Below are positions 39,888-60,312 of a stretch of DNA of 64,000 nucleotides, one piece after another. The notes under the pieces are model-generated. The model saw nothing but the letters and a program-made list of their open reading frames with translations. It was not told where the DNA came from and did no database searches. Numbering within the stretch: the stretch's first letter is position 1; the number at the start of each line of letters is the position of its first letter. Origin of the DNA: Bacillota bacterium (lineage in GTDB: Bacteria; Bacillota; Ch66; Ch109); contig JABLWZ010000002.1 of assembly GCA_013178275.1 (NCBI GenBank), positions 162,416 through 226,415 of the forward strand, written 5' to 3'. A program made the translations under genes and the position numbers.

Positions 39888-40478
39888 ATGCCTGATTCGA
39901 ATATAACGAAACTGGCCCTTGCCAATTCATTGAAAGGGCTAATGGCAAAGACCGCTTTTAATAAGATTTGCGTCAGCGATATTGTGGATAACTGCGGACT
40001 AACAAGGCAAGCATTTTATTATCATTTCAAAGATAAGTATGATCTTATGAATTGGATTTATTATACAGAGACCGCCTGTTTTATGAATTCCTATAACAAA
40101 GTGGAGCATTGGATGGATGGTCTGACAGATTTGTGTAACTATATGCGGCAAAATAAGACGTTTTATATCAACGCTCTTAACACAACCGGGCAAAATTCTT
40201 TTCAGGAATATCTGCATGATTACATCCGCGATATTTCGATATCTGTAATAGAGAGCATCAAAAACACAGAATTTGAAGAAGAAAAATGGGGATTTATTGT
40301 CGAATTTATTTCCACTGCTTTTGTCGGTCTGATTGTGCGGTGGGCCGACAATGGCATGAAAGATGATCCGGCAGAGTATGTAATGAAAATGCGCAGCTTA
40401 TTTGACGGAAGCATTCTTTGTGAACTGGAAAGCCAAAGCGAAGGGATCGCCACGGAAAATTCGACCAAACCGGAATGA
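39888..40478 (+). CDS. TetR-family regulator (DhaS/TetR_C_8-like)
   Basis: TKLALANSLKGLM, CGLTRQAFYYHFKDKYDLMNWIY. Confidence 0.85.
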   Translation: MPDSNITKLALANSLKGLMAKTAFNKICVSDIVDNCGLTRQAFYYHFKDKYDLMNWIYYTETACFMNSYNKVEHWMDGLTDLCNYMRQNKTFYINALNTTGQNSFQEYLHDYIRDISISVIESIKNTEFEEEKWGFIVEFISTAFVGLIVRWADNGMKDDPAEYVMKMRSLFDGSILCELESQSEGIATENSTKPE

Positions 40479-41771: not shown

Positions 41772-42065
41772 TCATAAAGATGCTTTTTTTATCCCTGCCG
41801 TACCAAAACTTTTTGGTAACAGAATCGCCCCCACCGCCCGTAAGAAAGCCCCTATCACCGGTAGCTCAAACAGATAGGCTGCCGCCAGGAACGTTATTTT
41901 TCGCGGCCAAAAAGCTGCCAAAAGAAACCCATCCAGCAAGCTAGTATGATTAGCAACCACGATCACCCGCCCACTACTGGGGATATTTTCCTTCCCGGTT
42001 ACTATAGGCCTCCCGTAGAGCCACAATAGCCCCTTGGAAATCACCTTAACCAAAGTATAGACCAT
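41772..42065 (-). pseudogene. 1-acyl-sn-glycerol-3-phosphate acyltransferase (PlsC-like), truncated
   Basis: GKENIP...VANHTSLLD (HX4D). Similarity stops after LRAVGAI; no FPEGTR block. Confidence 0.75.
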
Positions 42066-42099
42066 CCCGCAGCTTCACAACCTTCTCCTATCGTGTTCT

Positions 42100-45000
42100 C
42101 TAGTCGCTGATCGATACATCCTCTATTTCCGTTCCCGGCTTCACTTTATACCATGCGGCGTACATGGTCGGCAAAACCAGCAGCGTCAACAGGGTAGCGG
42201 CAAAAAGCCCCCCGGCGATAGCCACTGCCATTGGTCCCCATAAAACACTGGTGGTCAATGGAATCATGCCCAGGATAGCCGCGGCCGCGGTTAGCACTAT
42301 AGGACGAAATCTCTGCACCGCCGCATGTATTATGGCATCCCAGGTAGACTCTCCAGCCTTGAGCTGCTGTTCTATCTGGTCAATTAAGATGATAGAATTG
42401 CGGATGATAATTCCCGCCAACGCTAGAATCCCGCAATATACCACAAAACACAGGGGCTGCCGGGTAAGCAGAAGGATGGGAGCCACCCCAATCATCCCTA
42501 AAGGGGCGGTCAGCAGGGTCAGTATCATTTTCGGCATGCTCCTAAGCTGCAGCATCAGTAGGATGACTATCACAATTATCATCAAGGGGACCTGCTTAAC
42601 CAGATTAGCGATGGCCAGATCAGCCATCTCCTTGATCCCCCCGACCTCGATGGTGTATCCGAGCGGCAGTCCCTCACGTATCCCTTTAAGGCTGTCGTAA
42701 ACCCGCTTGGTCGCATCTATGTCTGTGATACCAGATCCCGCCTTCGCCTGAACGGTGATAGACGGTTTTAAATCGCGCCGTCCCAGTAGACCTTCTTCAG
42801 CACCGTAGCTGATCCTGGCCACCTGGTCTAAAGGAACAAACTGGCCGCTTCCGGTCGGAATGTTTAAGTCTTTAATCCCAGTTAGATTGGCCCGGTTCAT
42901 CGCGTCGAGTCGGAACACCATGCTGACCGTCCGGTCTTTTTCTCTATACTCAGATATCGGAGCGCCGGAAAGCTGCGACTGCAGGGTTGAGGCCAAGCTT
43001 TGACTGTTAACTCCCAGCATCCTGGCCTTATCCTGATCAACCTCCAAATGTATTACCTTGCTCTTTTCACTCCAGTCAAGGTTTACGTCATTGAGATAGG
43101 GCTGGGATACCATAACCGACTCGACCTGCTTGGCGATCTCCCGCACCTTGCCTTCATCCTCGCCGGTGACCCGCAGCATCACTGGATAATTGAACATCGG
43201 AGCGGTTTGGAGCATTCTAACCTGCCCAAGAACAGATGGAAACTGTTGAGATAAAGTTTCATTGATTTTATTACAGAGTCGGTCACGGGCATCGACATCC
43301 CTGGATACAATCATGAATTGAGCTATACTGGAATCGGGGACCGAAGGAAAAAAGGTTATCAAAAACCGCGGCGCTCCCTGCCCCACATAATAGCTGTAAT
43401 TTACGATATCAGGATCACCCTCCAGGGTCTGGGCGAATTTATTGGCTTCTGCATCCGCGGCTTGTATAGAAGCTCCTTCCGGCAACTTCATATCAACAAT
43501 GATTTCCGGCCTGGACGGTGGCGGGAAAAAATCATTTTTAAGCAATGTCATCAGCAAAATAGAACCGAGAAAAGCCGCCAGGGTCAGAGCCAGGACCAGT
43601 TTGCGGTGATTTAAACACCAGATGAGGATCTGCTTGAATAAGCGGTAAAACTTTGTATCATATAGATCGAAGGAACGTTCGTGAGTCGCCGGTTTGACCT
43701 TGATCAAATGATATCCCATCAGGGGAGTGGCAGTGCCGGCCACCACCCAGGATATAAGCAAAGCCATGGCTACCACCAGGAACATGCTGCCCAACAGCTC
43801 GCCCACCGATCCTTTGGTAAGCCCCATGGGAATAAAGCCGGCACTGGTAATCAGCGCCCCGGTCAACCGGGGACCCGCCGTGGATGCGAAAGCGAAACTG
43901 GCTGATCTTCCGCGATCCCACCCTTGTTCCAGTTTCACCTTCATCGACTCCACGACAATAATGGCGTCATCGACTAGCAATCCCAGGGCCACGATCAAAG
44001 CTCCCAGCGAAACCTTGTGTAGATCGATACCAGTGGTTTTCATCCCAATTAGAACCCCGGCGATCACCAGGGGAATACATAAAGCCACCACTATCCCGGT
44101 GCGCATTCCCAGGCTCAGGAAGCATACCAGGAGAACGATAGCAATGGCGATAATTAAGGTTATAACGAATTCGTTAATCGCTTCCTTTACCACCGCGGGT
44201 TGATCCGCCACTCGGTTTAACTCCATACCCAGCGGCAGGTCCTGATTGATCTTAGCGATGTTCTCGTTCAGATCTTTTTCCAGGTTTAAAATGTTCCCTC
44301 CTTCTTCCATGGATATGGCCAATCCGACCGCCGGTTGGCCATTAAAATACATTTTCGGTTCCGGGGGGTCGGCGTATCCCCGCTTCACAGTGGCGATATC
44401 ACCCAACCGGAAGGTGCCGCTGCTGGCGTTAACCGGCATATTACGGATGCTGTCAACATCGTCAAACATGCCGGATACGCGTAAATAAACTCTATCAGAA
44501 GAAGTCTCGATCATCCCTGAGGGGGTCATGGCGTTTTGCGCCTGCAGAGAAGCGATGATCGAGTTAGGGTTTATCCCCAGTTTGGAAAGCTTGCTGCTCT
44601 CCATTTCTATGTAGATTTTTTCGGGCTGCACCCCGATAAGTTCCACTTTTTTTACATCATTAACCCCCAACAGAGTTCGGCGTATCCGTTCCGCCTCCGC
44701 TCTCATGTCTTCATATGTAAAACCATCCGAAGTAAGCGCATAGATTGAGCCAAAGACATCCGCATAATCATCGTTAAAATATGGCCCTACCACCCCTGAC
44801 GGCAGTGTATCCTTGATGTCGAGAACTGAGTTGCGGACCTTGAACCAGGTCGGTTGGAGCTGATCCTTGCCGACCTCGACCTTCAAGTTGACATAGATGA
44901 CCGACTGTCCAGGCGTCGAATAACTCTGCAGATAATCGAGCCCGGGCGTGTTCTGGAGCTGCTTTTCTATCTTGTCGGTGACCTGTTCTTCAACCTGCTG

Positions 45001-45177
45001 GGCGCTTGCGCCTGGCCAGGCAGTTGAAACCACCATCTGTCGGATCACATAATCCGGATACTCCATCCTTCCCAGGCTCTGGTAAGAGTAGGCACCCACA
45101 ATAAACGCCAGAATGATAAAAAAATAAATCACCGACTTGTTTTCCAGCGCCCATTCGGTTAAGTTAAAATTCTTCAT
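42100..45177 (-). CDS. RND efflux permease (AcrB/AcrD/AcrF family)
   Basis: 1025 aa; WPGASA..VEEQVT, GLLVDDAI, RFRPIVLT. Confidence 0.92.
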   Translation of the reverse strand: MKNFNLTEWALENKSVIYFFIILAFIVGAYSYQSLGRMEYPDYVIRQMVVSTAWPGASAQQVEEQVTDKIEKQLQNTPGLDYLQSYSTPGQSVIYVNLKVEVGKDQLQPTWFKVRNSVLDIKDTLPSGVVGPYFNDDYADVFGSIYALTSDGFTYEDMRAEAERIRRTLLGVNDVKKVELIGVQPEKIYIEMESSKLSKLGINPNSIIASLQAQNAMTPSGMIETSSDRVYLRVSGMFDDVDSIRNMPVNASSGTFRLGDIATVKRGYADPPEPKMYFNGQPAVGLAISMEEGGNILNLEKDLNENIAKINQDLPLGMELNRVADQPAVVKEAINEFVITLIIAIAIVLLVCFLSLGMRTGIVVALCIPLVIAGVLIGMKTTGIDLHKVSLGALIVALGLLVDDAIIVVESMKVKLEQGWDRGRSASFAFASTAGPRLTGALITSAGFIPMGLTKGSVGELLGSMFLVVAMALLISWVVAGTATPLMGYHLIKVKPATHERSFDLYDTKFYRLFKQILIWCLNHRKLVLALTLAAFLGSILLMTLLKNDFFPPPSRPEIIVDMKLPEGASIQAADAEANKFAQTLEGDPDIVNYSYYVGQGAPRFLITFFPSVPDSSIAQFMIVSRDVDARDRLCNKINETLSQQFPSVLGQVRMLQTAPMFNYPVMLRVTGEDEGKVREIAKQVESVMVSQPYLNDVNLDWSEKSKVIHLEVDQDKARMLGVNSQSLASTLQSQLSGAPISEYREKDRTVSMVFRLDAMNRANLTGIKDLNIPTGSGQFVPLDQVARISYGAEEGLLGRRDLKPSITVQAKAGSGITDIDATKRVYDSLKGIREGLPLGYTIEVGGIKEMADLAIANLVKQVPLMIIVIVILLMLQLRSMPKMILTLLTAPLGMIGVAPILLLTRQPLCFVVYCGILALAGIIIRNSIILIDQIEQQLKAGESTWDAIIHAAVQRFRPIVLTAAAAILGMIPLTTSVLWGPMAVAIAGGLFAATLLTLLVLPTMYAAWYKVKPGTEIEDVSISD

Positions 45178-45236
45178 GACGCTACCTCACAGACAGAGTT
45201 AATTAACAAAAATCGCTGTTATTAATCGAAACTCCC

Positions 45237-46334
45237 TTAATAAGGAGTGTCCCCGAGACGAACCTTTTGCCCCTCCTTCAGTTTATGTACACCCGCAGTA
45301 ACCACAATATCCCCTTCTTTAAGGCCCTCGATCACCTGCACCTGGTTGTCGCCAAACGCACCGACTTTAACCGATCTCAGGTTTGCGACGCCATCATTCA
45401 CTACCCATACCGAAGGCGTGTCTCCCGTCTGGTAAATCGCCGCCAGTGGAAGGAAAACCGCCGCCTTATCCCTTTGATTGACTACCATAACCGAAGCGGT
45501 CATCCCCAGCTTCAACTGGGGTGGGGCGTCTAACAGGCTCACGCGTATCTTATATGTGCGGGTCGTGCTGTCGGCCATCGGCGCCACCTCTCTCAGCTGG
45601 CCATTCAAAACGACATCCGGAAGCGCCCAGAATGTAACTTTTATCTGCCGGGCGTTGCAGATCTCTTCCAGGCGGTTCTCCGGGATATTGATTTCTATCT
45701 CCTTTTCGCCATCCTGCACCAGAGTCACCACCGTCTGACCAGCCCCAACAATCTGCCCGATCTCGGCATTAACGCTCGCCACAACCCCGGCGTTATCTGA
45801 GTATAACCGGCAGTAGTTTAATTTGTTGCTGCTGCCTTCATACTGGGCCTGGGCCTGGCGGAACAAGGCCTCGGAAGTATCAGCGGCGTTTTTTATCCGA
45901 TCGTAATCCGCTTGGCTGACTGCTTTATTTGCATACAGCTGTTCGTAACGGGCCAGGTTTTCTTTCGCTAGACTATATTGCGATTCGGCTGCGGAAACCT
46001 GAGCTTCCAAGCTGTCGACTTCTTTTTGAATGTCTTGCGGGTCTAACTGCATGATGATCTCGCCCGGTTTGACTGCACTGCCGAGGTCGACATAACGACC
46101 GATGACCTTGCCGCCCACCTGAAAAGCCAGATGGTTTTCATGGCGGCCCTTTACCACCCCTGAATAGGAATAGCTTTGCTCCGGCCCAATATTCTTTACA
46201 ACCGTAGAGCGCACCAGCGGTATAGCTTCCGCTTCCTCAATATGGACATAACTTTTTAACATCAGGCCCGCCACCAGAGCGATCGCCAAAATCCCTACCA
46301 CCGTATAACATATCAGTCGGTTTCTTCGGCTCAA
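45237..46334 (-). CDS. RND adaptor (membrane fusion protein)
   Basis: N-terminal TM, LAFQVGGKV, GQIVGAGQ, LKLGMTA, GLKEGDIVV. Confidence 0.9.
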   Translation of the reverse strand: MSRRNRLICYTVVGILAIALVAGLMLKSYVHIEEAEAIPLVRSTVVKNIGPEQSYSYSGVVKGRHENHLAFQVGGKVIGRYVDLGSAVKPGEIIMQLDPQDIQKEVDSLEAQVSAAESQYSLAKENLARYEQLYANKAVSQADYDRIKNAADTSEALFRQAQAQYEGSSNKLNYCRLYSDNAGVVASVNAEIGQIVGAGQTVVTLVQDGEKEIEINIPENRLEEICNARQIKVTFWALPDVVLNGQLREVAPMADSTTRTYKIRVSLLDAPPQLKLGMTASVMVVNQRDKAAVFLPLAAIYQTGDTPSVWVVNDGVANLRSVKVGAFGDNQVQVIEGLKEGDIVVTAGVHKLKEGQKVRLGDTPY

Positions 46335-46372
46335 GGATTATTCACCTCCAAAATTCCCACAACCGCCAAACC

Positions 46373-46401
46373 ATTGGTACCAATCTGGTTACATTGGTAC
46401 C
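46373..46401. promoter_or_regulatory. Putative TetR operator upstream of the efflux operon
   Basis: Palindrome ATTGGTACCAAT plus a second ATTGGTACC; shares its core with 47079..47094. Confidence 0.6.
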
Positions 46402-46429
46402 GCCAAAAAAAACACGTGTTTCACAGTTA

Positions 46430-47035
46430 TCAATAAAGCCAACTGTTACACAGAAAAGGCATCCGGTTAGTCTTTTTATCCGGTTCGACCAGTCCGTTGA
46501 GCAGTATATCGACCATGATTGATGTCGCTTCTTTTGGAATAAGATTATTTTGGCTCATGTATTTATAGTTGGATAGCTGGTCGGATATGCCATTAAATAT
46601 CATCTTGATGACAGCCGGGTCCACAGGTCTAAAATACTTGGCCTCAACCCCTTTACGTATAATCTCTTCGATCAGGTCCCATTCTTCATCGCGAAAACGG
46701 TTGATTTTTTCCCTTTCCTCCGGCAGGTAGCGCATAATATCATCCAGGATGCGTGACATCAACGGGTCGTATCTTTTTAAGGGGTAGATGACTTGAAACT
46801 GCTTAATTTTTTCGGCCATTGAAAGCCCGTCATCTTTTATAACAGCCATTCCCTGCTGGCGTATATCGTTCAAAAATTGGTCAACGATCGCCCCAATCAG
46901 TTCTTCCTTGGAGTCGAAGTATTCATACAGGGTACGCTTGCTGACAGCTAGTTTCTGTGCCAGGTCACTCATGGTAAACTTGATGCCTTGAACAGCCATC
47001 TCTTCAGTTGCCGTCATTAGAATCCGGTTTCGCAA
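46430..47035 (-). CDS. TetR-family regulator of the RND operon
   Basis: GIKFTMSDLAQKLAVSKRTLYEYFDSKEEL. Confidence 0.9.
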   Translation of the reverse strand: MRNRILMTATEEMAVQGIKFTMSDLAQKLAVSKRTLYEYFDSKEELIGAIVDQFLNDIRQQGMAVIKDDGLSMAEKIKQFQVIYPLKRYDPLMSRILDDIMRYLPEEREKINRFRDEEWDLIEEIIRKGVEAKYFRPVDPAVIKMIFNGISDQLSNYKYMSQNNLIPKEATSIMVDILLNGLVEPDKKTNRMPFLCNSWLY

Positions 47036-47060
47036 AACTAATCACCCTCTGTCAGAAGCT

Positions 47061-47094
47061 AATGGTACTTAATTAGTTCCAATGGTACCATTGG
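47061..47094. promoter_or_regulatory. Putative TetR autoregulatory operator
   Basis: Perfect 16-bp palindrome CCAATGGTACCATTGG plus AATGGTAC, close to a minus-strand TTGACA (47105-47110). Confidence 0.65.
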
Positions 47095-47240
47095 CTTCTT
47101 CCCGTGTCAATAGAATTATTTATCCCTTAACCCTCAGTGCACGAGAAAAATAAGAAAGGGAATAAATAAACGAGACCGACATAATAGAATCGAATTAGAT
47201 AAGATATTATAAGATATTGATATAATTATTCCACTAATAA

Positions 47241-48452
47241 ATGATCCTAGAACCTGGAGTGACGATTTTGGATATTCTTAATTTGCCTGGTTTTAAAGTG
47301 CTTAAAACAGAAGAGAATCAGTACGATTATAGGACAACCACCGAGTTAACGGAAAAACCAGGTTGTTGCCCCCATTGCGGCAGCAAACCAAATTTGTATC
47401 TTCACGGAAGCCGTGAACAATTGGTTCGTGACACTAGTATCCACGGTAAAAGAGTGGGGATTCTTTTTTTACGTAAGCGTTATAAATGTCGTGAATGTGG
47501 GTCAACTTTCTATAAATCCGCACCTGCTATCGACAAAAAGCACGTTTCACTACGAGGCTGGTTGAATGTATTCAGCAACAGGCTTTGGGCCAGCCATTCC
47601 TTCATATTGCAGAAGAAATAGGCATTAGTCATACAATTGTACGCAAAATCTTTAATGAATTTGCAGAAAAGAAAGCAAGCGAGACTCGGCTGATTACCCT
47701 ACTAGTTTTGGGAATTGACGAAATTCATGTTTCTAAGAAGCCCAGAGGCATCCTCTGAAATATCGAAGAAAATACTGTCGTAGAAATGTTGCCCAATCGC
47801 AATAAAGAAACAATCCTTGCGGCTTTACGTAAGTTCGATTCCAATAAGGTTGAAATTGTTGCAATAGATATGTGGAAGCCCTACCGGGATGCAATAATGC
47901 AAGTGTTGCCCGGCGCAACTGTAGTTGTAGATAAATTTAATGTTCTCCGCATGCGTCGGATGCAATGGAAAAAATACGGAAAGCCATACGCGATAAAACC
48001 CCAGACAAACAACGACGACAGTTAAAACGAGATAAGTTTATTCTTCTTAAAAACGGCAAAGAACTAACCATTCAAGAGCAGTTATTATGGAAGCCTGGTT
48101 AGGCACATTTCCAGCTTTAGAGAAGGCTTGGAATCTCAAGGAACAGTTATATCAAGTCTATTAGCCAAAAGACATAATTGAAGCAAAAGCAAGGTATCGG
48201 GAATGGAAATCAAAAATCACCCCAGAAGTAGCTCCTTTTAATGATGTAGCTAAAAAACTATTGATAATTGGCAAAGAGAAATATTCAATTACTTCTTACA
48301 GAGAATACACAAACGCTTACAGCGAAAGCATAAATAATCTCATACGATTGATTGAACGTACCGGAAGGGGTTATTCTTTTGAAGTCTTGCGATATAAAGT
48401 TTTGTTCGGAATAAAGCATAAAAAGATCCCTAAATATGATGACAATAAATAG
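47241..48452 (+). pseudogene. ISL3-family transposase pseudogene
   Basis: Zn ribbon CPHCG...KRYKCRECG, then GIDE, AIDMWKPY, VVDKF and TNAYSESINN spread over several frames with stops. Confidence 0.85.
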
Positions 48453-48635
48453 AGTCGAACCATTTTATTTAAAGTTTTTTCTTTTCTCCATTATCATAAG
48501 TGTTAACTTTCTTGTTAGAAACATAATTTAAGGGCGCTTGTACCCTAACAATCTGCGAAAGTGCCGGTTCCAAGCGGATTCCAAGGCATGGGATATTAGA
48601 TTAGATGTTATTTTCAGCGTTTATATAAGGTGTCA

Positions 48636-49652
48636 TCATTTTGATGATTTCGGCAAGGGTGCGGCCGGTTCCGCTCTCTCTTTTTTGTGCCTGTCATATG
48701 ACTGACCCTCAGGCCGGATCGTCCTGTACCCTTCTGGCACGCCAATCTTCCGGCTAATTTCCTCCATATCACGCGACCATTCAAGTGTTACCAGCGGCAG
48801 CCCGGCCCCGCCTCTTATGGAGCATACAAAGTCATGCACCGCATTCCTGCACGAAGCGGAAACGCCCTTTTCGGCAATATATACGCCAAAAATGTTGCCA
48901 TAAGAGATGGCGCGGCGGACATATTCCGTGGAGGTCGCTTCTGAGAAGGTGCTTTCATCATAGTTTGTATGAAAACCATAAAAACAACGGTTGTTTTTAA
49001 GAATATGAAAAGCTTTGAGGCAACTTTCATCAGTAAGGCTTGCATCTGTTGCTTGTACAGAAACCATAGTATTATGCAGTTTACTAAGAGCTTCAGCAGT
49101 TTGATCCGTAATTAAGTCGGGAAATACTTTGAATACAAATAAGCATTCATCAAATCGCTTTGCTATTTCACATAAAGCGATGATGTTGCTTGCTTCATGG
49201 AAGCAGAAGATATAGCTGTAAATACCCATATCCCGCCCTTCCCTTATGAAATGCTCCATCTGATGAAAAAAATCTGAACCGGATTCGTAAACATCAAAAA
49301 TCAGAAGCCATGGAAGAGACCCCCCAAAATAATCCTGTCTTTTTTTCAGCTTATTAGCCCCATATATCAGGCTGCTGTATCCCAGATTCAGACCGACTTT
49401 TTTTATCGTATCGTTGTTAACATCGGAAATTATTCTTTTAACCAGCGAATTATAAGGATTCTTTGGATTGGTAATGACCTTTTTGGCGGCATCAAAAAAA
49501 CATTTCTGATTTTCACTTGTTGAAAAAAGTAGGCCCAAATCAATCAGGTTTCTTATGCTGCGTCTTGTGTTGCTTTTCATATCTTCCATAGCCTTGCTGA
49601 CAGCTATATTGATTGTCTGCCTTATCAGCCTATGCTGCAACTCCAACAGCAA
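48636..49652 (-). CDS. Radical-SAM-fold paralog lacking the CX3CX2C motif (putative pseudoenzyme)
   Basis: Colinear similarity by eye with 49830..51212, with no cysteine triad after PWLLIFD. Confidence 0.65.
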   Translation of the reverse strand: MLLELQHRLIRQTINIAVSKAMEDMKSNTRRSIRNLIDLGLLFSTSENQKCFFDAAKKVITNPKNPYNSLVKRIISDVNNDTIKKVGLNLGYSSLIYGANKLKKRQDYFGGSLPWLLIFDVYESGSDFFHQMEHFIREGRDMGIYSYIFCFHEASNIIALCEIAKRFDECLFVFKVFPDLITDQTAEALSKLHNTMVSVQATDASLTDESCLKAFHILKNNRCFYGFHTNYDESTFSEATSTEYVRRAISYGNIFGVYIAEKGVSASCRNAVHDFVCSIRGGAGLPLVTLEWSRDMEEISRKIGVPEGYRTIRPEGQSYDRHKKERAEPAAPLPKSSK

Positions 49653-49728
49653 ACAACTCCCTTTTAAATAATAAAGTACATTATTTAATATACCCCAAAG
49701 CGGAGATGTGCTCTATTGACAGATATTT

Positions 49729-49755
49729 GCTTGTGTAAAGTTTCTTTACACAAGC
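49729..49755. promoter_or_regulatory. Palindromic operator in the divergent promoter region
   Basis: GCTTGTGTAAAG-TTT-CTTTACACAAGC, perfect 12-bp arms, downstream of TTGACA at ~49716. Confidence 0.65.
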
Positions 49756-49829
49756 TGTTTTTGTCTAATTACTCAAAATATGCTCTATGCTACACTTCAT
49801 CATAGATTAATTTGATTGGGGGCTGTATC

Positions 49830-51212
49830 ATGAACAAAATTATCGGGTCTACAGGGATGAAGCTGGCATATGCCTACTTAAATTCCAATCCTGAAAGGAA
49901 TGTGCCAAAACTCATGGATTGGGTAGATCGTATGGCTATAAACAATACAATGGAAGGTCAGCGCAAGGCGATCCGTAAGATCATCGAAGATAAGGACAAC
50001 AACTGGTATAAGCTGATTCTCAGTATGTGGACAGATGTTGATCCCGGGGTGCGGAAGGCGTTTTTCAATAATTTCGTATTAAATGAAAACTTCATCGGAT
50101 GGCCCATACAGGAGAAAAACCGGGAAAAGTACGGCTGTAACATACCATGGGCAATCCTGATGGACCCCACCTCAGCCTGCAACCTCAAATGCACAGGCTG
50201 CTGGGCGGCGGAGTACGGCAATAAAATGTCTATAAGCTATGAAATACTGGATAGCATCATTCAGCAGGGTAAGGAACTTGGGGTATATTTTTTCCTCTAT
50301 TCCGGCGGAGAGCCGCTTGTACGAAAGGCGGATATTATACGTCTTTGTAAAAAACATAGCGATTGTCAGTTCCTGGCGTTCACGAACGGCACGCTGATTG
50401 ACGAGGCGTTTGCCGACGAAATGCTGCGCGTCAGGAATTTTGTACCGGCCCTCAGCATCGAGGGATTTGAGGACGCCACGGACTCCCGTCGCGGCAAAGG
50501 CACTTATCAGGCGGTCATACACGCTATGGATATCCTCCGGCGGAAAAAACTCATATTCGGCGCTTCTCTCTGCTATACGCGCGATAACACCGAGGTGATC
50601 GGCAGCGAAGAATTTTTCGATTTCCTGATCGACAAAGGGGTGAAATTCGCGTGGTTCTTCACCTATATGCCGGTGGGCGCGGATACGACGCCTGATTTAC
50701 TGGTAACCGCCGAGCAGCGTGAGTTTATGTACCGCCAGATCCGTCACTTCCGCGGAACTAAGCCTCTGTTCACCTTGGATTTCTGGAATGACGGCGAATA
50801 TGCAGGCGGCTGTATCGCTGGCGGGCGCAGGTATCTGCATATCAACGCTAACGGGGATATCGAACCATGCGCGTTCATCCATTATTCGGATTCCAATATT
50901 CATGAAAAAACGCTTCTTAAGGCGCTGCAGTCCCCTCTGTTCACACAGTACCACAGGAACCAGCCCTTTAACGACAACCACCTGCGGCCCTGCCCTCTTC
51001 TGGACAATCCGGGCAGACTGACGGCGATGGTGGAGGCATCCGGTGCGGCCTCGACGGATTTCGTCAAACCGGAGGACGTACACAGCTTGAGCGGTAAGTG
51101 TGTGAATGCCGCTAAAAAATGGGCTGTGACTGCGGAAAGGCTGTGGGGTGAATCACACAACTACGCCGGTTGCGCGCAATGCGGTGATGAGGCTCGAAAG
51201 GCCATTGGTTGA
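49830..51212 (+). CDS. Radical SAM protein with SPASM/Twitch domain
   Basis: DPTSACNLKCTGC (CX3CX2C), SGGEP, FTNG, GCIAGG..INANGDIEPCAF, PCPLLD. Confidence 0.9.
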   Translation: MNKIIGSTGMKLAYAYLNSNPERNVPKLMDWVDRMAINNTMEGQRKAIRKIIEDKDNNWYKLILSMWTDVDPGVRKAFFNNFVLNENFIGWPIQEKNREKYGCNIPWAILMDPTSACNLKCTGCWAAEYGNKMSISYEILDSIIQQGKELGVYFFLYSGGEPLVRKADIIRLCKKHSDCQFLAFTNGTLIDEAFADEMLRVRNFVPALSIEGFEDATDSRRGKGTYQAVIHAMDILRRKKLIFGASLCYTRDNTEVIGSEEFFDFLIDKGVKFAWFFTYMPVGADTTPDLLVTAEQREFMYRQIRHFRGTKPLFTLDFWNDGEYAGGCIAGGRRYLHINANGDIEPCAFIHYSDSNIHEKTLLKALQSPLFTQYHRNQPFNDNHLRPCPLLDNPGRLTAMVEASGAASTDFVKPEDVHSLSGKCVNAAKKWAVTAERLWGESHNYAGCAQCGDEARKAIG

Positions 51213-51299: not shown

Positions 51300-52172
51300 A
51301 TGAGCGATTTTATTATTTTCACTGATGCCGCATCGGACCTTCCGACAGAGTTGATTGAAACCCATGGAATTTCTGTTTTACCCATGTATTTTGAAATAGA
51401 TGGTAGAAGCTACCGTCATTATCCTGACGGCAGAGAACTCGGATATTCTAGGTTTTATCAGATACTTCGCTCCGGCATCATGGCTAAAACATCGTTGGTT
51501 AACAGTTTGGAGTACCTGAACTATTTTGAACCTGTATTAAAACGCGGTCTGGATATCCTCTACATATCTCTTTCTTCGGGGTTGAGCGGCACTTATCAAT
51601 CCTCAGTAATAGCCGCGAAGGAATTAATGGAAAGGTATCCTGAGCGAAAAGTATACTGCATTGACTCGCGTTGCGCCAGCGTAGGACAGGGTATGCTTGT
51701 GTACCACGCCGCGCTAAAAAAGTATGAGGGTTTAGATATAGACGAATTGAAGGATTGGGTAGTTCAAAATCGTGATCACCTGTGTCATTGGTTTACGGTG
51801 AATGACTTGAATTACTTAAAACGGGGCGGCAGGTTAAGTACTTCAGCAGCTATCGTCGGCACTATGCTTTCAGTGAAACCAATTCTTCATGTTGATAAAG
51901 ATGGTCATCTCATCCTGAGAGGGAAAGTACGAGGACGCCGTAAGTCTCTAGTAGAGCTTGCCGAACATATGGAAAAATTCTGTGTTAGACCGGAGAAACA
52001 GACGATCTTTATCGGACATGGAGACTGCATTGATGATACAGGTATCCTTGCATCTATAATCAAGCAAAGATTTGCACTAAAGGATGTAGCTATCAGCTAT
52101 GTCGGACCAATTATTGGAGCGCATACCGGACCTGAGGTGATGGTTTTGTGCTTCTTTGGCAGTGAAAAATAG
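51300..52172 (+). CDS. DegV/FakB fatty-acid-binding protein
   Basis: TDAASDL, LSSGLSGTY, IDSRCASVGQG, LKRGGR, IGAHTGP. Confidence 0.92.
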   Translation: MSDFIIFTDAASDLPTELIETHGISVLPMYFEIDGRSYRHYPDGRELGYSRFYQILRSGIMAKTSLVNSLEYLNYFEPVLKRGLDILYISLSSGLSGTYQSSVIAAKELMERYPERKVYCIDSRCASVGQGMLVYHAALKKYEGLDIDELKDWVVQNRDHLCHWFTVNDLNYLKRGGRLSTSAAIVGTMLSVKPILHVDKDGHLILRGKVRGRRKSLVELAEHMEKFCVRPEKQTIFIGHGDCIDDTGILASIIKQRFALKDVAISYVGPIIGAHTGPEVMVLCFFGSEK

Positions 52173-52196: not shown

Positions 52197-52967
52197 TTGC
52201 TTATTTTAGCAAAATACTTTTTATGGTTTATTGTATATAGCTTTGTGGGATGGGCCTATGAATCCGCAATTTGCTCAATAAGTGAACTAAGCCTTGTAAA
52301 TCGTGGGTTTTTGAATGGCCCGTTATGTCCGGTTTATGGTTTTGGAGCTTTAGCCTCCATATTTATTTTGGATATGAGAACAGACAATCTTTTTATTCTG
52401 TTTTTTTCCGGCATGCTTATAGCCTGTACGGTTGAATATATCACCGCGGTTTTGCTTGAAAAGCTGTTTAATGCGAAATGGTGGGATTATTCTAATTACC
52501 GTTTCAATATCCAAGGACGTGTCTGTCTTATAGGGGCCGTAGTTTTTGGTGTTCTCGCGGTGCTGCTTATCAAGTATATTCATCCGTTTGTCGGAGCTTT
52601 GATTGGCCAACTGCCTGTTTTGTGGCAGATTGTTTTATCAATCGTTATTTTTATTTTTCTCATACTGGATTTGTATATAACTGTGCGTCACCTTCTGGTT
52701 CTGAACAGCAGACTGAAAAAGATGCAATTGGCAATAAACCAATTTTTGAAGCAGTATGCACAACAGGCCGGAGAACTTAAAGAGTCTCTTATGAGCAAAT
52801 TTGAAGAAAGTGAATTTTATAACGAGCGCATTAAAGCTTTAATTAGTCTAAGTCGGTTTCAGAATATAAGAATTATTAGGGCATTCCCAAGCTTACGATC
52901 CATCAACTATGATGATGCATGGCAAAAGCTTAAAAGCATTTTGTTAGGCTCTGATAGCAGGAATTAG
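52197..52967 (+). CDS. Membrane protein ('putative ABC transporter permease' family)
   Basis: YSFVGWAYE, NRGFLNGPLCPVYG, WWDYS..FNIQGRVC. Confidence 0.8.
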   Translation: MLILAKYFLWFIVYSFVGWAYESAICSISELSLVNRGFLNGPLCPVYGFGALASIFILDMRTDNLFILFFSGMLIACTVEYITAVLLEKLFNAKWWDYSNYRFNIQGRVCLIGAVVFGVLAVLLIKYIHPFVGALIGQLPVLWQIVLSIVIFIFLILDLYITVRHLLVLNSRLKKMQLAINQFLKQYAQQAGELKESLMSKFEESEFYNERIKALISLSRFQNIRIIRAFPSLRSINYDDAWQKLKSILLGSDSRN

Positions 52968-53194: not shown

Positions 53195-53779
53195 ATGAAC
53201 TTACCAAACAAATTGACAATATTAAGAATGATATTGATACCAGTTTTTATTATTCTTTTAATGAAAGAGTATTATTACGTGTCGGGAATTCTCTTTATTG
53301 CAGCTTCTATTACAGATGCCCTGGATGGATATTTAGCAAGAAAATACAATCTCATTACGGATTTCGGCAAGACAATCGATCCTCTGGCTGATAAGCTTCT
53401 GATTACATCAGCTTTGATTTGTTTAGTGCAACTAGGCAATATTGCGGGATGGCTTGCCATAGTGATTCTGGCGCGAGAATTTATAATTACCAGCTTAAGA
53501 TCTGTTGCGGCTAGAGAAGGCGTAATCATTGTTGCAGAAAGATCGGGAAAAATCAAAACAGTATTGCAAATGTTAGCCTTGTCGGTTATTTTGCTGCGCA
53601 ATTGGCCTTTTTCAATTTTTACCGATTTACCTATCGGAGATTATTTACTTTGGCTTGCTGTAGGCATGACCTTGTATTCGGGAATTGACTATATTATAAA
53701 AAATAAAACATTACTTCTGCCAAAAAGTTCAAGAATGAAAAACAGCCCAATATTCAGCACTATAGCAAAAGAAAGCTGA
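53195..53779 (+). CDS. pgsA: CDP-diacylglycerol--glycerol-3-phosphate 3-phosphatidyltransferase
   Basis: MNLPNKLTILR, TDALDGYLARK..ITDFGK.IDPLADK, GKIKT. Confidence 0.93.
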   Translation: MNLPNKLTILRMILIPVFIILLMKEYYYVSGILFIAASITDALDGYLARKYNLITDFGKTIDPLADKLLITSALICLVQLGNIAGWLAIVILAREFIITSLRSVAAREGVIIVAERSGKIKTVLQMLALSVILLRNWPFSIFTDLPIGDYLLWLAVGMTLYSGIDYIIKNKTLLLPKSSRMKNSPIFSTIAKES

Positions 53780-53961
53780 ATATAGGGCGTTTATTGATAT
53801 ACAACTATTGTATCAAGAAAAGGTAAAAATTTATAGCACGGCCTGCCTGATAACCCATCTAGCCAGAGCAGAGCCTATTTCATCGCCATAAAGATGCTTG
53901 ATGCGGCCATGTTATCTAGGTGACACGGCCGGTATGCGCCGCAAAGCGAGGAGTGATTCTG

Positions 53962-54987
53962 GTGACAAAAACAACGATTGTCGGGGCCGGTAGTTGGGGC
54001 ACGGCTTTATCATATTCATTGGCATCCAACAAAAAAAAAGTAACCCTCTGGGGCAGAGTAGAGGATGGAATCAATGAGGTAGCAGAAAGTAGGCAGAATC
54101 CCCGTTTCCTTCCCGGCGTTATTTTGCCGCAGGAAGTAGAAGTGTCCAACGATCTGGAGAAAGCCCTTGCCGGAGCAAAAAATGTTGTACTGGCTGTGCC
54201 CTCTCATATCGTACGGGAAGTAACGCATAAAATTGCCGGTTTTTTAGAGCCTGGCTGTATCGTTATCAACGTAGCCAAGGGGATTGAAACGGAGACCTTA
54301 CTGCGCTTGTCTCAGGTGATTGAAGAAGAGCTCAGCGGTAAAAACACTCATATTTCTGTCTTATCCGGACCCAGTCATGCCGAAGAAGTCGGACGTGGCG
54401 TCCCCACAGCTGTAGTGGTGGGCGCTAAAACTCGCCAAGTAGCTGAAAAAGTACAAGATCTCTTTATGTCTCCGCTTTTTCGGGTCTATACAAACCCTGA
54501 CCTGGTGGGAATCGAATTGGGTGCAGCTTTGAAAAATATCATCGCCTTGGCTGTTGGAATCACGGAAGGTCTGGGCTATGGTGATAATTCAAAAGCGGCA
54601 CTGATCACTAGGGGTTTGGCGGAAATCGCCCGTTTAGGTGTGGCGGCCGGAGCGAACCCGCTGACCTTTGCAGGACTGACGGGTGTGGGTGACTTAATCG
54701 TAACTTGCACCAGCATGCACAGCCGTAATCATCGTGCTGGTATCCAGATTGGGCAAGGGGTTCCCCTGGATGTAGTCCTGGAGCGGATGGGTATGGTTGT
54801 GGAAGGTGTGAGAGCTACCCAGGCAGCTTATCGCATGAAGGATGTTTATCAGGTCGCGATGCCTATCTGCGAGGAAACATACAATGTCCTCTTTAATAAA
54901 AAAGACACCAAAGAAGCGGTCATGGATCTGATGCTACGTCAACGCACGCATGAGGTCGAAAAAATTGTGATGAATCCACCTTCTTAG
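53962..54987 (+). CDS. gpsA: NAD(P)H-dependent glycerol-3-phosphate dehydrogenase
   Basis: GAGSWGTAL, SGPSHAEEV, KNIIALA, GVGDLIVTCTSMHSRN. Confidence 0.95.
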   Translation: MTKTTIVGAGSWGTALSYSLASNKKKVTLWGRVEDGINEVAESRQNPRFLPGVILPQEVEVSNDLEKALAGAKNVVLAVPSHIVREVTHKIAGFLEPGCIVINVAKGIETETLLRLSQVIEEELSGKNTHISVLSGPSHAEEVGRGVPTAVVVGAKTRQVAEKVQDLFMSPLFRVYTNPDLVGIELGAALKNIIALAVGITEGLGYGDNSKAALITRGLAEIARLGVAAGANPLTFAGLTGVGDLIVTCTSMHSRNHRAGIQIGQGVPLDVVLERMGMVVEGVRATQAAYRMKDVYQVAMPICEETYNVLFNKKDTKEAVMDLMLRQRTHEVEKIVMNPPS

Positions 54988-56946: not shown

Positions 56947-58422
56947 ATGGTAACAGGACACCTGCGAGAAAAAAACGGCTATTTCCAGATGATCCTCACC
57001 TACAAGGATATGAACGGAAAGCGCCAAACCAAGTCCGTCAGCACGGGACTTCCCGTCAAGGGGAATAAAAAGCGCGCCGAAGCGATGCTTTGGAAAACCA
57101 GGCAAGAGTTTAATCCCGACACGGCGATGAGCGACAAAAACATGTTATTTGCCGACTTCCTGAACAAATGGCTGCAGGACGTTATCAACAGAGTGGACGC
57201 CGACACCTACGCCCTTTACGCGTACGACGCCAAAACCTTCATCATCCCTTACTTTAAGAACACCGACGTTACGGTGGCGAAAATAAAGCCGGGGGACATC
57301 GAAGGCTACTATCAGTACGAGAGAACAGAAAATCGCGCATTGAACACCGCCCTGCTCCAATATCATGAGGTCATCAAGGAAGCCTTGGCCTACGCCGTGG
57401 AGCTTGAACTGATCCGGGACAATCCGGCCGACAAGGTAAACCCGATCTCCGGGGAGGTGCGGATACTGTTTACCGACTTCCTGCTGGAATGGCTGGAGAT
57501 GATCAAGCACAATGTGGAAATGACCACCTACGCCTCTTACGCTATGTGCATCAAGAGCCGAGTTATTCCTTATTTTAAGGACTTCAAGCTTACCTTGAAG
57601 GACGTGACGCCGAAGCACATCCAGGACTATTATCAGTACGAGCTGAATGAGAAAGGTTTAAGCGCCTGCACGGTGATCCACCGCCACGCCAACATTCGCA
57701 AGGCGTTGCAGTACGCTTTCAAGGTGGGCCTGATCGCCTTTAACCCCGCCGACCGGATCGAGCGGCCCAAAACCGCAAAATTCGTGGCCAGTATTTACGA
57801 TGCCGGGGAATTGGAAGCCTTGTTCGCCGTCGTGAAAAACAAGCCGATAGAGTTGGCCGTTATCCTGGGCGCGTTTTACGGGTTGCGCCGCAGCGAGATC
57901 GTGGGGCTGAAATGGGACGCGATTGACTTTGGAAAAAAGACGCTGACCATCAAGCACACCGTAACCGAGGTAAGGGTGGACGGAAAAGTCATCATCGTGG
58001 AAAAGGACCGCGCCAAAACCAAGTCCAGCCACCGTACCCTGCCGCTGGTAGAACCCTTTGAAAAGCTTCTCCGGCGGCTGAAGGCGGAGCAGGAGCGCAA
58101 TCAAAAAGTATGCGGAAAAGCCTATTGCCGGGAGTATCTCGGCTACATCTACGTGAATGAGCTGGGAGAACGGATCAAGCCGGGCTATATCACCCAGAAT
58201 TTCGCGCTCACGCTGAAAAACCACGGTTTGAAGAAAATCCGTTTCCACGACCTGCGCCATAGCTGCGCCAGCCTGTTGTACGCCAACGGCGTCAGCCTGA
58301 AAGAGATCCAGGAGTGGTTGGGGCACAGCGATATTTCCACCACCTCCAACATCTACACCCACCTGGATTTCAGTTCCAAGGTCGCTTCGGCCAACGCCAT
58401 CATCGGCGTATATCCCTCCTGA
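56947..58422 (+). CDS. Tyrosine integrase with an arm-binding domain and a duplicated core-binding domain
   Basis: GLRRSEI, FHDLRHS, WLGHS..TTSNIYTH; two tandem LF.DFL..WL...NPAD blocks. Confidence 0.93.
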   Translation: MVTGHLREKNGYFQMILTYKDMNGKRQTKSVSTGLPVKGNKKRAEAMLWKTRQEFNPDTAMSDKNMLFADFLNKWLQDVINRVDADTYALYAYDAKTFIIPYFKNTDVTVAKIKPGDIEGYYQYERTENRALNTALLQYHEVIKEALAYAVELELIRDNPADKVNPISGEVRILFTDFLLEWLEMIKHNVEMTTYASYAMCIKSRVIPYFKDFKLTLKDVTPKHIQDYYQYELNEKGLSACTVIHRHANIRKALQYAFKVGLIAFNPADRIERPKTAKFVASIYDAGELEALFAVVKNKPIELAVILGAFYGLRRSEIVGLKWDAIDFGKKTLTIKHTVTEVRVDGKVIIVEKDRAKTKSSHRTLPLVEPFEKLLRRLKAEQERNQKVCGKAYCREYLGYIYVNELGERIKPGYITQNFALTLKNHGLKKIRFHDLRHSCASLLYANGVSLKEIQEWLGHSDISTTSNIYTHLDFSSKVASANAIIGVYPS

Positions 58423-58749
58423 CATCCCTCCAAATCGGGCGGAATGCCAGGTAAATAGGGAGATGAGGGCACTGCAAATATGCGCTAGAATGGTTCATGC
58501 GACGGTATGCCGGGCGGCAAACAGAAAGGTACCGCAAGAAAAGAAAAAGGCCCTCAAATCCGCTTATACCGCGGCTTTAAGAGCATTGACTTCTGGTGCC
58601 GATGGCCGGAGTCGAACCGGCATGGAGGTTATCCAACGGTTTTTGAGACCGCCGCGTCTGCCAATTCCGCCACATCGGCAAGTTTATTTCAATTTCCCTC
58701 TCCACATAATCCGCCTTTGGAATTTGGAGGGATATGGTGGAGGGATATG
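58410..58749. repeat. Paired putative integrase arm-type sites flanking the tRNA
   Basis: TGGAGGGATATG twice (58725-58736, 58738-58749); inverted ATATCCCTCC and CATCCCTCCA (58410-58432). Confidence 0.6.
58594..58679 (-). tRNA. tRNA-Leu(CAA)
   Basis: GCCGATG...CATCGGC-ACCA acceptor stem, D-arm GGAATTGGCAGAC, anticodon loop CTCAAAA, long variable arm, GGTTCGACTCC. Confidence 0.93.
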
Positions 58750-58843
58750 AAAAACCATAGAGGCTATTCGATTATCAAGAACTCAGCAACTACGCGGGTT
58801 CGGGAGCCGCCGACCGGTCGAAAAGGGCTCTTCACGCACTGGA

Positions 58844-58882
58844 TTTTGAGACCGCCGCGTCTGCCAATTCCGCCACTTCGGC
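58844..58882 (-). pseudogene. 5' half of tRNA-Leu(CAA) (att junction), with no pairing 3' half
   Basis: 38/39 identical to 58641..58679; identity ends exactly after the anticodon loop CTCAAAA. Confidence 0.85.
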
Positions 58883-58900
58883 TGAAAAAACTGCAAAACA

Positions 58901-58929
58901 AGTATATCATCGCCCGGCACCGCTGTCAA
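58901..58929 (-). promoter_or_regulatory. Sigma-A promoter of the tRNA locus
   Basis: Minus strand TTGACA-N17-TATACT, 18 bp upstream of the tRNA 5' half. Confidence 0.75.
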
Positions 58930-59006
58930 CGAGGTGCGCTGGCAGGACGGCGACCCTCTGGCGGTATTTTTATCCTGCGGACAATAGAGCGGATTAACTA
59001 CGCAGT

Positions 59007-59035
59007 AACCGGAAATAAGCCTCCAACATAATATA
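59007..59035 (+). promoter_or_regulatory. Putative sigma-K promoter
   Basis: AACC-N16-CATAATATA fits the SigK pattern mACm-N16-CATAnnnTA. Confidence 0.45.
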
Positions 59036-59079
59036 TTAAAGAATTCCACGTTTCTGTCTGAATGGAGGTTTATATAGTC

Positions 59080-60141
59080 ATGAGGAGACTAAGCACCAAA
59101 GCCGAGCCAACCGAAGCGATGCCATCTAAGAAGATAAGAGCCCTTGGCAAGTCGGAGACGGGTGTGCCCTGGTGGCAGACGACGAAGGACGCCGAGCCCC
59201 TTCAGGACCTGACCGACACCGACGTCACGCCCAGTTCGGAAAGAAGATACGGTAGGCCGGCACCGCCGCCCCCGCCACCTCCCCCGGCGCGTCCAGTCCC
59301 GGTCCCGGTTCCTCCGGCGCCTCCGGCGCCTCCGGCGAGACCAGTACCGCGGCCGATTAAGCCGGTGCCGCAGCCTCCGGTGCTGCCGCCCATGGAAGAG
59401 ATCATACCGCCGCCCAGGTCGAGGCCGGTGGTCCCGCCCGTGAGACGGCCGAGGGCGCCCCGGGAAGAAGAGATCATGCCGCCCCAGCCGGCGCCGGTTC
59501 CCTGCCCCCAGGTTCCTGAGGAGATGTCCCTTCTGCGGGAGTGCCTGATCCGGAAGACCAAGTCGATCGAGTTTTACCTGGAGCTGGCGGAAGACATGAA
59601 GTGCAGCCTGAGTGAATTCTTCCTCTGCAAGGCCAAGGACGAGGTAGTGCACTTCAAGCTGCTGCTGGGGATGCTGGGGCACCTCGACCCCGACCAGGCC
59701 GACGAACTGGAAAGCTCCGACCTGCAGGACTGCATGGTCATGGCGATGGACTTCTGCTGTCACCGTTCTCAGGAGATGTGGGGTGAGGAGCGCGCTCCGG
59801 AGCACCGTGGCTGGGAAGAAATGGACGACTGCGACGACGACGATGACGACGATGATGACGACGATGCTCCCGAAAATCGGCGGATGGCCATGAACCGGCC
59901 GTATCGGCGCTACATGCCCTACTACTTCTATCACAAGCCGTTTGAACCCGTTCCCAGCTATCGGGAAGACCTGGCGCGGGCGGTCAGGATGGAGGCCGAC
60001 ATGATAAGCTTCTACGAGGATGCGGTCTGCCAGGTCGACCACTGCGACATCCGCAACCTCCTGGCCTGCATCATCATGCACGAGAAGAAGGACCTGGCCC
60101 AGTTCAGCCAGCAGCTGATGAAGACCTTTCCCGATTCCTAA
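59080..60141 (+). CDS. Proline-rich protein with ferritin/rubrerythrin-like helical segments (possible spore coat protein)
   Basis: RBS GGAGG; poly-Pro N-region; SIEFYLELAE..KDEVVHF; poly-Asp linker; MEADMISFYE..IIMHEKKD. Confidence 0.65.
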   Translation: MRRLSTKAEPTEAMPSKKIRALGKSETGVPWWQTTKDAEPLQDLTDTDVTPSSERRYGRPAPPPPPPPPARPVPVPVPPAPPAPPARPVPRPIKPVPQPPVLPPMEEIIPPPRSRPVVPPVRRPRAPREEEIMPPQPAPVPCPQVPEEMSLLRECLIRKTKSIEFYLELAEDMKCSLSEFFLCKAKDEVVHFKLLLGMLGHLDPDQADELESSDLQDCMVMAMDFCCHRSQEMWGEERAPEHRGWEEMDDCDDDDDDDDDDDAPENRRMAMNRPYRRYMPYYFYHKPFEPVPSYREDLARAVRMEADMISFYEDAVCQVDHCDIRNLLACIIMHEKKDLAQFSQQLMKTFPDS

Positions 60142-60164
60142 AATCGAATCCCACCCCTATTAAT

Positions 60165-60203
60165 CGCCACCCGGTTAAAGACCGAGGTGGCTTTTGTTTT
60201 TTT
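60165..60203 (+). terminator. Intrinsic terminator
   Basis: GCCACC.CGGT..ACCG.GGTGGC followed by a T-run. Confidence 0.65.
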
Positions 60204-60312
60204 CCTTAATTTATAAATAAAACAAGATAGTAGTATTAATGACCCTGCCTCTCATCTAAGCTATAATGATAGAAGCGGTCATGGCGCACCCCGGCGCCAG
60301 GATGGAGGAACC

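Follow-up and report, generated by a model that had tools for sequence, protein, structure and literature searches.

A 64,000-nucleotide stretch of contig JABLWZ010000002.1 from a Bacillota bacterium (assembly GCA_013178275.1), hereafter the window, contains two divergently oriented genes, one encoding a radical SAM/SPASM enzyme and the other a shorter protein that database sources label hypothetical. A first-pass annotation had proposed, from the sequence and its open reading frames (ORFs), that these genes form a co-regulated pair of an enzyme and its pseudoenzyme paralog with a perfect palindrome between them. Here we describe a computational analysis of this locus. We present evidence that the 338-amino acid (aa) protein is a conserved, selected and, judged by its sequence, catalytically dead paralog of the adjoining enzyme. 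Furthermore, we show that the two-gene view was incomplete, having overlooked a third partner, a TetR regulator of the DhaS clade. The features on which the analysis turns are as follows (nt, nucleotides).

48636..49652, minus strand: cysteine-motif-less radical SAM paralog (pseudo-rSAM), 338 aa, identified by homology and motif loss
49830..51212, plus strand: radical SAM/SPASM enzyme, 460 aa from the ATG at 49830; PF04055 at 61.2 bits, PF13186 at 24.3 bits
39888..40478, plus strand: DhaS-clade TetR regulator (TetR_N + TetR_C_8), convergent with the paralog; TIGR02366 at 132.1 bits, cut-off 129
49729..49755: perfect palindrome, arms 49729-49740 and 49744-49755 of 12 nt, 100% complementary, with a 3-nt loop
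49599..49617: site A, exact GACA-N11-TGTC, inside the opening ~18 codons of the paralog gene
49718..49737: site B, GACA-N12-TGTA, which departs from GACA-N12-TGTC at one position
49747..49765: site C, TACA-N11-TGTC, one mismatch, starting 29 nt after site B

The enzyme ORF extends from a TTG at 49812 to 51212 on the plus strand (466 aa); the ATG at 49830 is the likelier true start, as it is preceded by GGGGG and the resulting 460 aa match the length of relatives. The gene callers begin the paralog at its third codon, 49646. The enzyme possesses the CX3CX2C and GGEP motifs and the SPASM cysteines, reaches the cut-off of no specific NCBIfam model, and has an anaerobic sulfatase-maturating enzyme (PDB 4k37) as its nearest solved relative. 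Its homology to the paralog, first seen by eye, is borne out by a single BLASTP comparison (274 residues, 21% identity, E 2e-11) in which all six of the segment pairs originally quoted are aligned. Profile-profile comparison with hhalign of family alignments built from 31 paralog relatives and 29 enzyme relatives gave a probability of 100 and an E value of 4.2e-40 over 331 columns. This alignment spans enzyme residues 1-368, the ~105-aa N-terminal domain of the enzyme being common to both proteins, and contains a gap of ~16 residues exactly at the CX3CX2C loop. The ESM Atlas's own predicted model of the paralog (predicted template modelling score, pTM, 0.84) has radical SAM/SPASM clusters as its nearest named neighbours, at a template modelling (TM) score of 0.88 over residues 3-335. 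Both the profile and the structural similarity that the first-pass annotation called for were therefore found, indicating common descent with the radical SAM superfamily and a predicted partial TIM-barrel fold. The paralog matches no Pfam family above threshold and no NCBIfam family at E<=0.01, and its family profile matches no chain among PDB sequences at E<=1. NCBIfam holds an annotated family of non-canonical radical SAM/SPASM-like proteins, TIGR04347 ('pseudo-SAM/SPASM protein'), which the active enzyme matches weakly (51.9 bits against a cut-off of 525); since the paralog has no NCBIfam match, its family is distinct from TIGR04347.

The paralog differs from the radical SAM/SPASM enzymes that it resembles in fold by the loss of each of their cofactor motifs, as had been noted for the window copy. 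Neither CX3CX2C nor GGEP occurs in any of 120 listed paralog relatives, and both occur in all 120 listed enzyme relatives. The loop bearing CX3CX2C, which ligates the [4Fe-4S] cluster, is deleted by ~16 residues, the window protein reads FHE in place of the SAM-binding GGE(P) motif, and C328, C347 and C388 of the enzyme, in its SPASM domain, have no conserved counterpart. Of the 99 enzyme columns conserved at >=95%, the paralog family retains 14; it has lost the three cluster cysteines, GGEP, the SPASM cysteines and a loop containing RRG, and has no equivalent of the last ~90 residues of the enzyme. Without an Fe-S loop, a SAM motif or SPASM cysteines, the paralog cannot carry out radical SAM chemistry. 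What it retains is the N-terminal domain and the barrel fold, and its best-conserved part is the one shared with the enzyme's otherwise unique N-terminal domain.

This protein belongs to a large and maintained family. A paralog profile compared with 1.84 billion cluster representatives (clusters at 50% identity) matched 1645 of them at E<=1e-3 and, at the stricter E<=1e-30, 601; the best 150 matches are 202-392 aa long, with lengths near 340 aa, and members that are ~20% identical share 12 invariant columns. CX3CX2C is present in 1 of 143 newly fetched family members. One 349-aa match to the profile, P0308, retains both CX3CX2C and GGEP and may represent either an intermediate or a true enzyme that has been truncated. 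The reading frame of the window copy is intact, as the first-pass annotation had stated, and the ratio of nonsynonymous to synonymous substitution (dN/dS, Nei-Gojobori), computed for pairs with dS<1 with the mosaic window copy left out, comes to 0.16-0.32 in the paralog and 0.09-0.19 in the enzyme, which speaks for purifying selection and not for neutral decay.

The distribution of the paralog was examined in a sample of 401 genomes of the phylum. The enzyme (E<=1e-80) is present in 169 of these genomes and paralog-type matches in 11, the window's own included; 15 further genomes matched at E<=1e-8 through full-length enzymes only. Four paralog genomes fall among the 51 sampled from the order of genome G076. 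The paralog lies head-to-head with an enzyme ortholog in 10 of the 11 paralog genomes, and the locus of the eleventh, G337, ends at a contig edge. At the same loci the enzymes are 57-67% identical to the window protein and the paralogs 20-28%. A scan of metagenome contigs, annotated with hidden Markov models made in this analysis, yielded 80 loci, and the head-to-head enzyme recurs in 43 of the 63 that could be judged (28 of 29 in the close clade, 15 of 34 in distant clades). The co-occurrence of the two genes is thus beyond chance. Both flanks could be judged at 23 distant loci: at 12 of these the regulator is present and no enzyme adjoins, at 7 both partners occur, at 1 only the enzyme occurs, and 3 lack both partners. 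When paralogs were collapsed at 70% identity into 20 clusters, 17 of which could be judged, at least one member had the enzyme adjacent in 9 of 17 and the regulator in 14 of 17. The upstream neighbours at enzyme-less loci are variable, comprising DegV together with a VTT protein, a phospholipase D-type enzyme, or unknowns.

The enzyme is found without the paralog in 158 of the 169 genomes and therefore does not need it. Twenty paralog-less enzyme loci from 19 genomes were examined, and at 12 of them the gene directly upstream is a TetR-family gene on the same strand; the enzyme family is therefore usually under TetR control. Of these 12 regulators, 3 are TetR_C_8 proteins, and the rest are longer, with the N-terminal domain alone recognised. 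On one contig (G157:C12, L024/L038) two full-length enzyme paralogs of 474 and 470 aa, both with CX3CX2C, stand in tandem; the enzyme family therefore also duplicates with its motifs kept.

The regulator at 39888-40478 is the sole TetR_C_8 protein of the assembly; it scores above the TIGR02366 (DhaS) cut-off, and its best solved relatives are PDB 4mk6 and 2iu5. The assembly contains no Dak1 match, and hence lacks the dihydroxyacetone kinase gene association of DhaS; the regulator is therefore of the DhaS clade but not a Dha regulator. Pfam and NCBIfam scans of neighbouring genes found TetR_N + TetR_C_8 proteins near the paralog at 11 of 12 related loci, with no TetR_C_8 regulator among the ORFs scanned at L008. 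Paralog-linked regulators elsewhere score 108.8-136.6 bits on TIGR02366, partly under the cut-off of 129. TIGR02366-like TetRs (E<=1e-20) occur in 34 of the 401 genomes, that is, in all 11 paralog genomes and in 23 of the 390 others, and in each of the 11 the regulator lies 0-8.3 kilobases (kb) from the paralog. In the metagenome loci the regulator was found in 46 of 55 judged, convergent with the paralog in all 46, and lies downstream of the paralog at 18 of 23 judged loci of the close clade and 28 of 32 of the distant clades. The paralog is tied more tightly to a DhaS-clade TetR than to the enzyme.

As an independent comparison, 15 other TetR_C_8 loci were fetched. A maximum-likelihood tree of 28 TetR_C_8 proteins is divided by a split with 100/99 support: one side holds all 12 paralog-linked regulators, both dha-linked regulators and one long-branch MMPL-linked row, and the other holds 7 MCRA-linked regulators, 3 from paralog-less enzyme loci, 2 MMPL-linked and 1 other. 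In genomes G114 and G074 the regulator is followed by a gene for a 335-aa Dak1-only protein, and the two are divergent from a Dak1+Dak2 kinase gene. Seven of the 15 other DhaS-like TetR genes adjoin MCRA-family (oleate hydratase) genes (L153-L155, L157-L159, L162), two of these seven loci having a GACA-N12-TGTC motif between the genes, and three more adjoin MMPL transporter genes; these loci point to a fatty-acid-linked branch of the TetR_C_8 family.

The palindrome reported between the two genes, with its perfect arms of 12 base pairs, is real and, at <=3 mismatches, unique in the 4.77-Mb assembly, but it reads better as two abutting candidate TetR-type sites than as a single element. Sites B and C each contribute their inner half as one of its arms, the region can be read in half-sites as adjacent (T/G)GACA-N11/12-TGTC(A/C) units, and the 29-nt spacing from B to C matches arrays at other loci. 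An intergenic alignment places the element at the same position in relatives, where the arm sequences differ yet remain complementary, with arms as long as 21 nt in L041. Sequence upstream of paralogs, 31.75 kb in all, contains 56 exact copies of the motif GACA-N10-13-TGTC, and the other 568 kb contain 35, an enrichment of ~29-fold. The exact motif is present upstream of the paralog at 41 of 71 loci, often in arrays spaced by 28-29 nt, enzyme-less loci included, and near the enzyme start at 2 of 20 paralog-less enzyme loci. The motif is also found at dha loci. In G114 and G074 a GACA-N12-TGTC site lies between the pair of regulator and Dak1-only genes and the Dak1+Dak2 kinase gene, and in G325, where the regulator is divergent from dhaK-dhaL-dhaM, the intervening sequence contains GGACACAT-N6-ATCTGTCC. 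At 6 of the 15 other TetR_C_8 loci the exact motif lies within ~100 nt of the regulator gene. The DhaS operator of Lactococcus lactis is said to have the same GACA-N12-TGTC form. What recurs with the paralog, as an association, is a module of three: the enzyme, transcribed divergently from the paralog together with degV-cmpB-pgsA, a DhaS-clade TetR that is always convergent with the paralog, and one to three GACA-N11/12-TGTC-type sites upstream of the paralog at a spacing of 28-29 nt.

In L. lactis, DhaQ is an inactive paralog of DhaK that binds the substrate and serves as a protein co-activator of the TetR-family activator DhaS. The locus in the window resembles that system in that its regulator falls in the same TetR subfamily, a non-catalytic paralog of the regulated enzyme is encoded beside both regulator and enzyme, a GACA-N12-TGTC-type palindrome stands in the promoter region here and at dha loci, and paralog-linked and dha-linked regulators lie on one side of the same split. 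It differs in that the paralog has a radical SAM fold rather than a Dak1 domain (none is detected by Pfam), the analogy being one of role alone, and in that the assembly is without a Dak1 gene, the regulator and pseudoenzyme are convergent rather than in one operon, and the target would be an operon of lipid genes. Passages in two papers describe DhaS as activating the dha operon from a palindrome that overlaps the -35 element. By analogy, the dead paralog may act as DhaQ does, sensing a ligand and serving as co-regulator to the TetR in control of the rSAM-degV-cmpB-pgsA operon, a tentative reading to which we give somewhat less than an even chance. The paralog would bind the substrate of the enzyme or a related lipid or fatty-acid ligand, and would dock onto TetR dimers at the tandem sites. 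Docking would in turn switch the divergent promoters, such that the lipid-modifying operon would be made only when its substrate is present.

Several observations weigh against a co-regulator of this kind. Contact between the paralog and the TetR is inferred from the DhaQ/DhaS analogy, and the convergent order of the two genes is unlike that of the co-transcribed DhaS and Dak1-only genes in G114 and G074. The gene neighbourhood by itself would also suit a TetR that does no more than regulate the paralog gene. The other TetR_C_8 regulators, which adjoin MCRA or MMPL genes, have no pseudoenzyme nearby and may bind fatty acids themselves. Proteins of 700-2000 aa include no fusion of paralog and regulator at E<=1e-10, a weak piece of evidence. 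The loci and genomes are related by descent, and the counts overstate their independence; the TetR_C_8 tree is unrooted and places the long-branch MMPL-linked row on the DhaS side. As for the sites, the exact motif is present at 23 of 41 loci with the TetR and at 2 of 7 without it, so that the correlation is not clean. The inner half-sites of the window clade carry one mismatch each, and the spacers of adjacent sites are complementary to an extent (arms to 21 nt, L041) that protein-binding sites do not require.

The paralog could instead be a non-catalytic subunit of the enzyme, acting as scaffold, substrate presenter or inhibitor, perhaps through the shared N-terminal domain, with the TetR setting the levels of both proteins. 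This is close to how the pair was first interpreted, and the co-location of the two genes, selection on the paralog and the lipid-gene setting have all stood up to analysis. The head-to-head order (10 of 11 genomes, 28 of 29 close-clade and 15 of 34 distant-clade judged loci) is what a subunit would predict, as is the fact that the paralog is best conserved where it shares the N-terminal domain of the enzyme. A pure subunit role is nonetheless disfavoured by the 158 of 169 enzyme-bearing genomes that do without the paralog, by the 12 of 23 distant loci at which paralog and TetR have no enzyme beside them, and by the divergence of the paralog, greater than that of the enzyme at the same loci. 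We consider this explanation unlikely.

The paralog could also be a stand-alone carrier or buffer of lipids or fatty acids, comparable to DegV, that is controlled by the TetR and contacts neither enzyme nor regulator. The lipid-rich neighbourhoods, the conservation of the barrel strands with loss of the cofactor motifs, and the 3 of 23 distant loci at which neither partner is adjacent are consistent with a carrier. Such a role leaves unexplained why paralog-linked regulators group with dha-linked ones, apart from those linked to the enzyme only, and why the convergent TetR pairing is near-obligate (46 of 46), and we regard it as quite improbable.

A similarly low probability attaches to the proposal that the palindrome is an RNA or DNA hairpin, a 5'-leader attenuator or a terminator, rather than a protein-binding site. 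On the plus strand it scores as terminator-like, with a 12-pair stem followed by TGTTTTTGTC, and thus has the stem-loop and T-run of an intrinsic terminator; its leader folds better than shuffled sequences (z -2.83), and A- and T-tracts flank the varying, still complementary arms in L008, L041 and L046. Protein binding alone does not explain why adjacent sites have complementary spacers at several loci, and the palindrome may have a leader-attenuator role. Against a hairpin, the element lies between two divergent start codons and not at the 3' end of a transcription unit, and a promoter scan of 49500-49950 scored no sigma-70-like site at 9 of 12, hence none upstream of the palindrome. Rfam gave only a sub-threshold small RNA match in 49400-50000 (19.6 bits against 70). 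Arrays of the same half-sites with non-complementary spacers occur at L137 and L141, and the outer GACA and TGTC halves of the window's sites are retained even though they are out of pairing register. Finally, simple decay of a functionless duplicate, suggested by three stop codons in the G337 copy, 4 split copies among 79 in the metagenomes and the divergent C-terminal tail of the window paralog, is rejected with next to no probability left to it, given the dN/dS values, the 601 clusters matched at E<=1e-30 (the best 150 being near 340 aa in length) and the 12 invariant columns. The stops in the G337 paralog (L047) are two TAG and one TAA, and in G067 (L042) a TAA splits the enzyme gene into pieces of 123 and 320 aa; G067 and G337 are incomplete metagenome-assembled genomes (75% and 80% complete), in which such stops may reflect either gene decay or errors of sequencing.

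The genes neighbouring the pair and the regulator, on which the proposed lipid connection of the DhaQ-like co-regulator draws, are listed below.

51300..52172, plus strand: DegV-family fatty-acid-binding protein, by domain and family match
52197..52967, plus strand: CmpB-like membrane protein (PF06541), by domain match
53195..53779, plus strand: PgsA, CDP-diacylglycerol-glycerol-3-phosphate 3-phosphatidyltransferase, by NCBIfam
53920..54987, plus strand: GpsA, glycerol-3-phosphate dehydrogenase, with no counterpart in L039 and L010
40530..41687, plus strand: Mbeg1-like protein (PF11187), syntenic with the regulator in close relatives

The suggestion that the pair acts on lipids thus finds its basis in gene context, with DegV, CmpB-like, PgsA and GpsA proteins encoded downstream, and related loci also hold Lgt, an acyl-ACP thioesterase, a patatin and an Mbeg1-like lipase. 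This context points to the acyl chains of membrane lipids as the target of the enzyme, and one candidate reaction is the tail-to-tail coupling of acyl tails. Passages of Sahonero-Canavesi et al. (2022, PMC13159169) describe such an enzyme, the bacterial membrane-spanning lipid synthase Mss, as a radical SAM enzyme of anaerobes that is widespread in Clostridia and acts on fatty-acyl tails, with homologs defined there by E<=1e-50 and >=30% identity to the T. maritima or T. ethanolicus enzyme. By that description Mss resembles the enzyme here, which is likewise widespread (169 of 401 genomes of the phylum) and stands among lipid genes in paralog-bearing loci; it differs in that the lipid context is weak at the 20 paralog-less enzyme loci, with DegV at 2 and phosphatidylserine decarboxylase at 1. 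In L039 and L010 nothing that corresponds to gpsA stands between pgsA and the following gene shared with the window, and gpsA therefore looks like an insertion here; an exact GACA-N11-TGTC lies just inside its start, at 53964-53982. A 97-aa ORF at 41772-42065 on the minus strand corresponds to a PlsC-type acyltransferase fragment, covering positions 6-68 of a model with 130, and L039 has an ORF of the same size at the matching place.

The regulator and the paralog are separated in the window by a segment with the following content.

41786..48469: extra ~6.7 kb without match in the nearest relatives, lying between the DhaS-like regulator and the paralog
42100-45177, minus strand: RND pump, within the extra segment
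45237-46334, minus strand: membrane-fusion protein of the RND pump, within the extra segment
46430-47035, minus strand: TetR of the RND pump, within the extra segment
47241-48452, plus strand: broken ISL3 transposase, within the extra segment

On both sides of the pair the window DNA is 89-95% identical to a contig of G097 (L039), and below ~49200 the identity drops from 87-95% to 44-68%. The window paralog is correspondingly a mosaic of two lineages: residues 1-150 are 84-88% identical to P0004 and P0006 and 69% to P0002, and residues 151-320 share 91% identity with P0002 and 52-55% with P0004 and P0006, with the frame open across the break. Because both outer flanks are G097-type, we read the segment as a pump cassette probably imported by homologous recombination, with one crossover inside the paralog; the mosaic may also be an assembly join. 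A contig from run X3, of another study, bridges 48204-49135. A contig from run X2 matches 48470-48841 and has different sequence to the left of 48470, so that another sample contains a version of the locus which lacks the ISL3 remnant at this point. A contig from run X4 carries a donor-type gene and diverges past 49249, and the break at ~49200 is bridged by none of the contig pieces shown from four runs.

The origin of the contig as a whole bears several marks. The paralog is present in 0 of 6 other genomes of the organism's own small GTDB class and the enzyme in 0 of 5 of its own family, and G097, of another family, shares >14 kb with the window at 89-95% DNA identity. The assembly is 4.77 Mb with 6.39% contamination, and its kin are 2-2.9 Mb; the contig may have been mis-binned or recently transferred. 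A phage-type integrase gene lies at 56947-58422, and the stretch from 58000 to 64000 has 58-65% G+C, compared with 38-50% around the paralog/enzyme pair; the integrase and the shift in G+C may mark an island boundary.

Full-text literature searches found no account in which a radical SAM enzyme and a dead paralog form a pair, in agreement with the first-pass annotation, nor one of a pseudo-rSAM acting with a TetR. It is possible, if rather doubtful, that DhaS-clade TetRs as a class sense their ligands through dead paralogs of the enzymes they control, the pseudo-rSAM being a second, independently evolved example. If so, it would also be the first protein of radical SAM fold to have been turned into a cluster-free sensor for a lipid substrate, and the single case of DhaQ/DhaS would become a recurring pseudoenzyme-sensor design for TetR regulators. 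The GACA-N11/12-TGTC arrays provide a defined and directly testable candidate cis-element. A co-regulatory function would also be the first role for a large unannotated protein family of anaerobic Bacillota and, since a dead paralog of this kind should bind the same molecule as the enzyme, would open a route to the substrate of a very common uncharacterised radical SAM enzyme.

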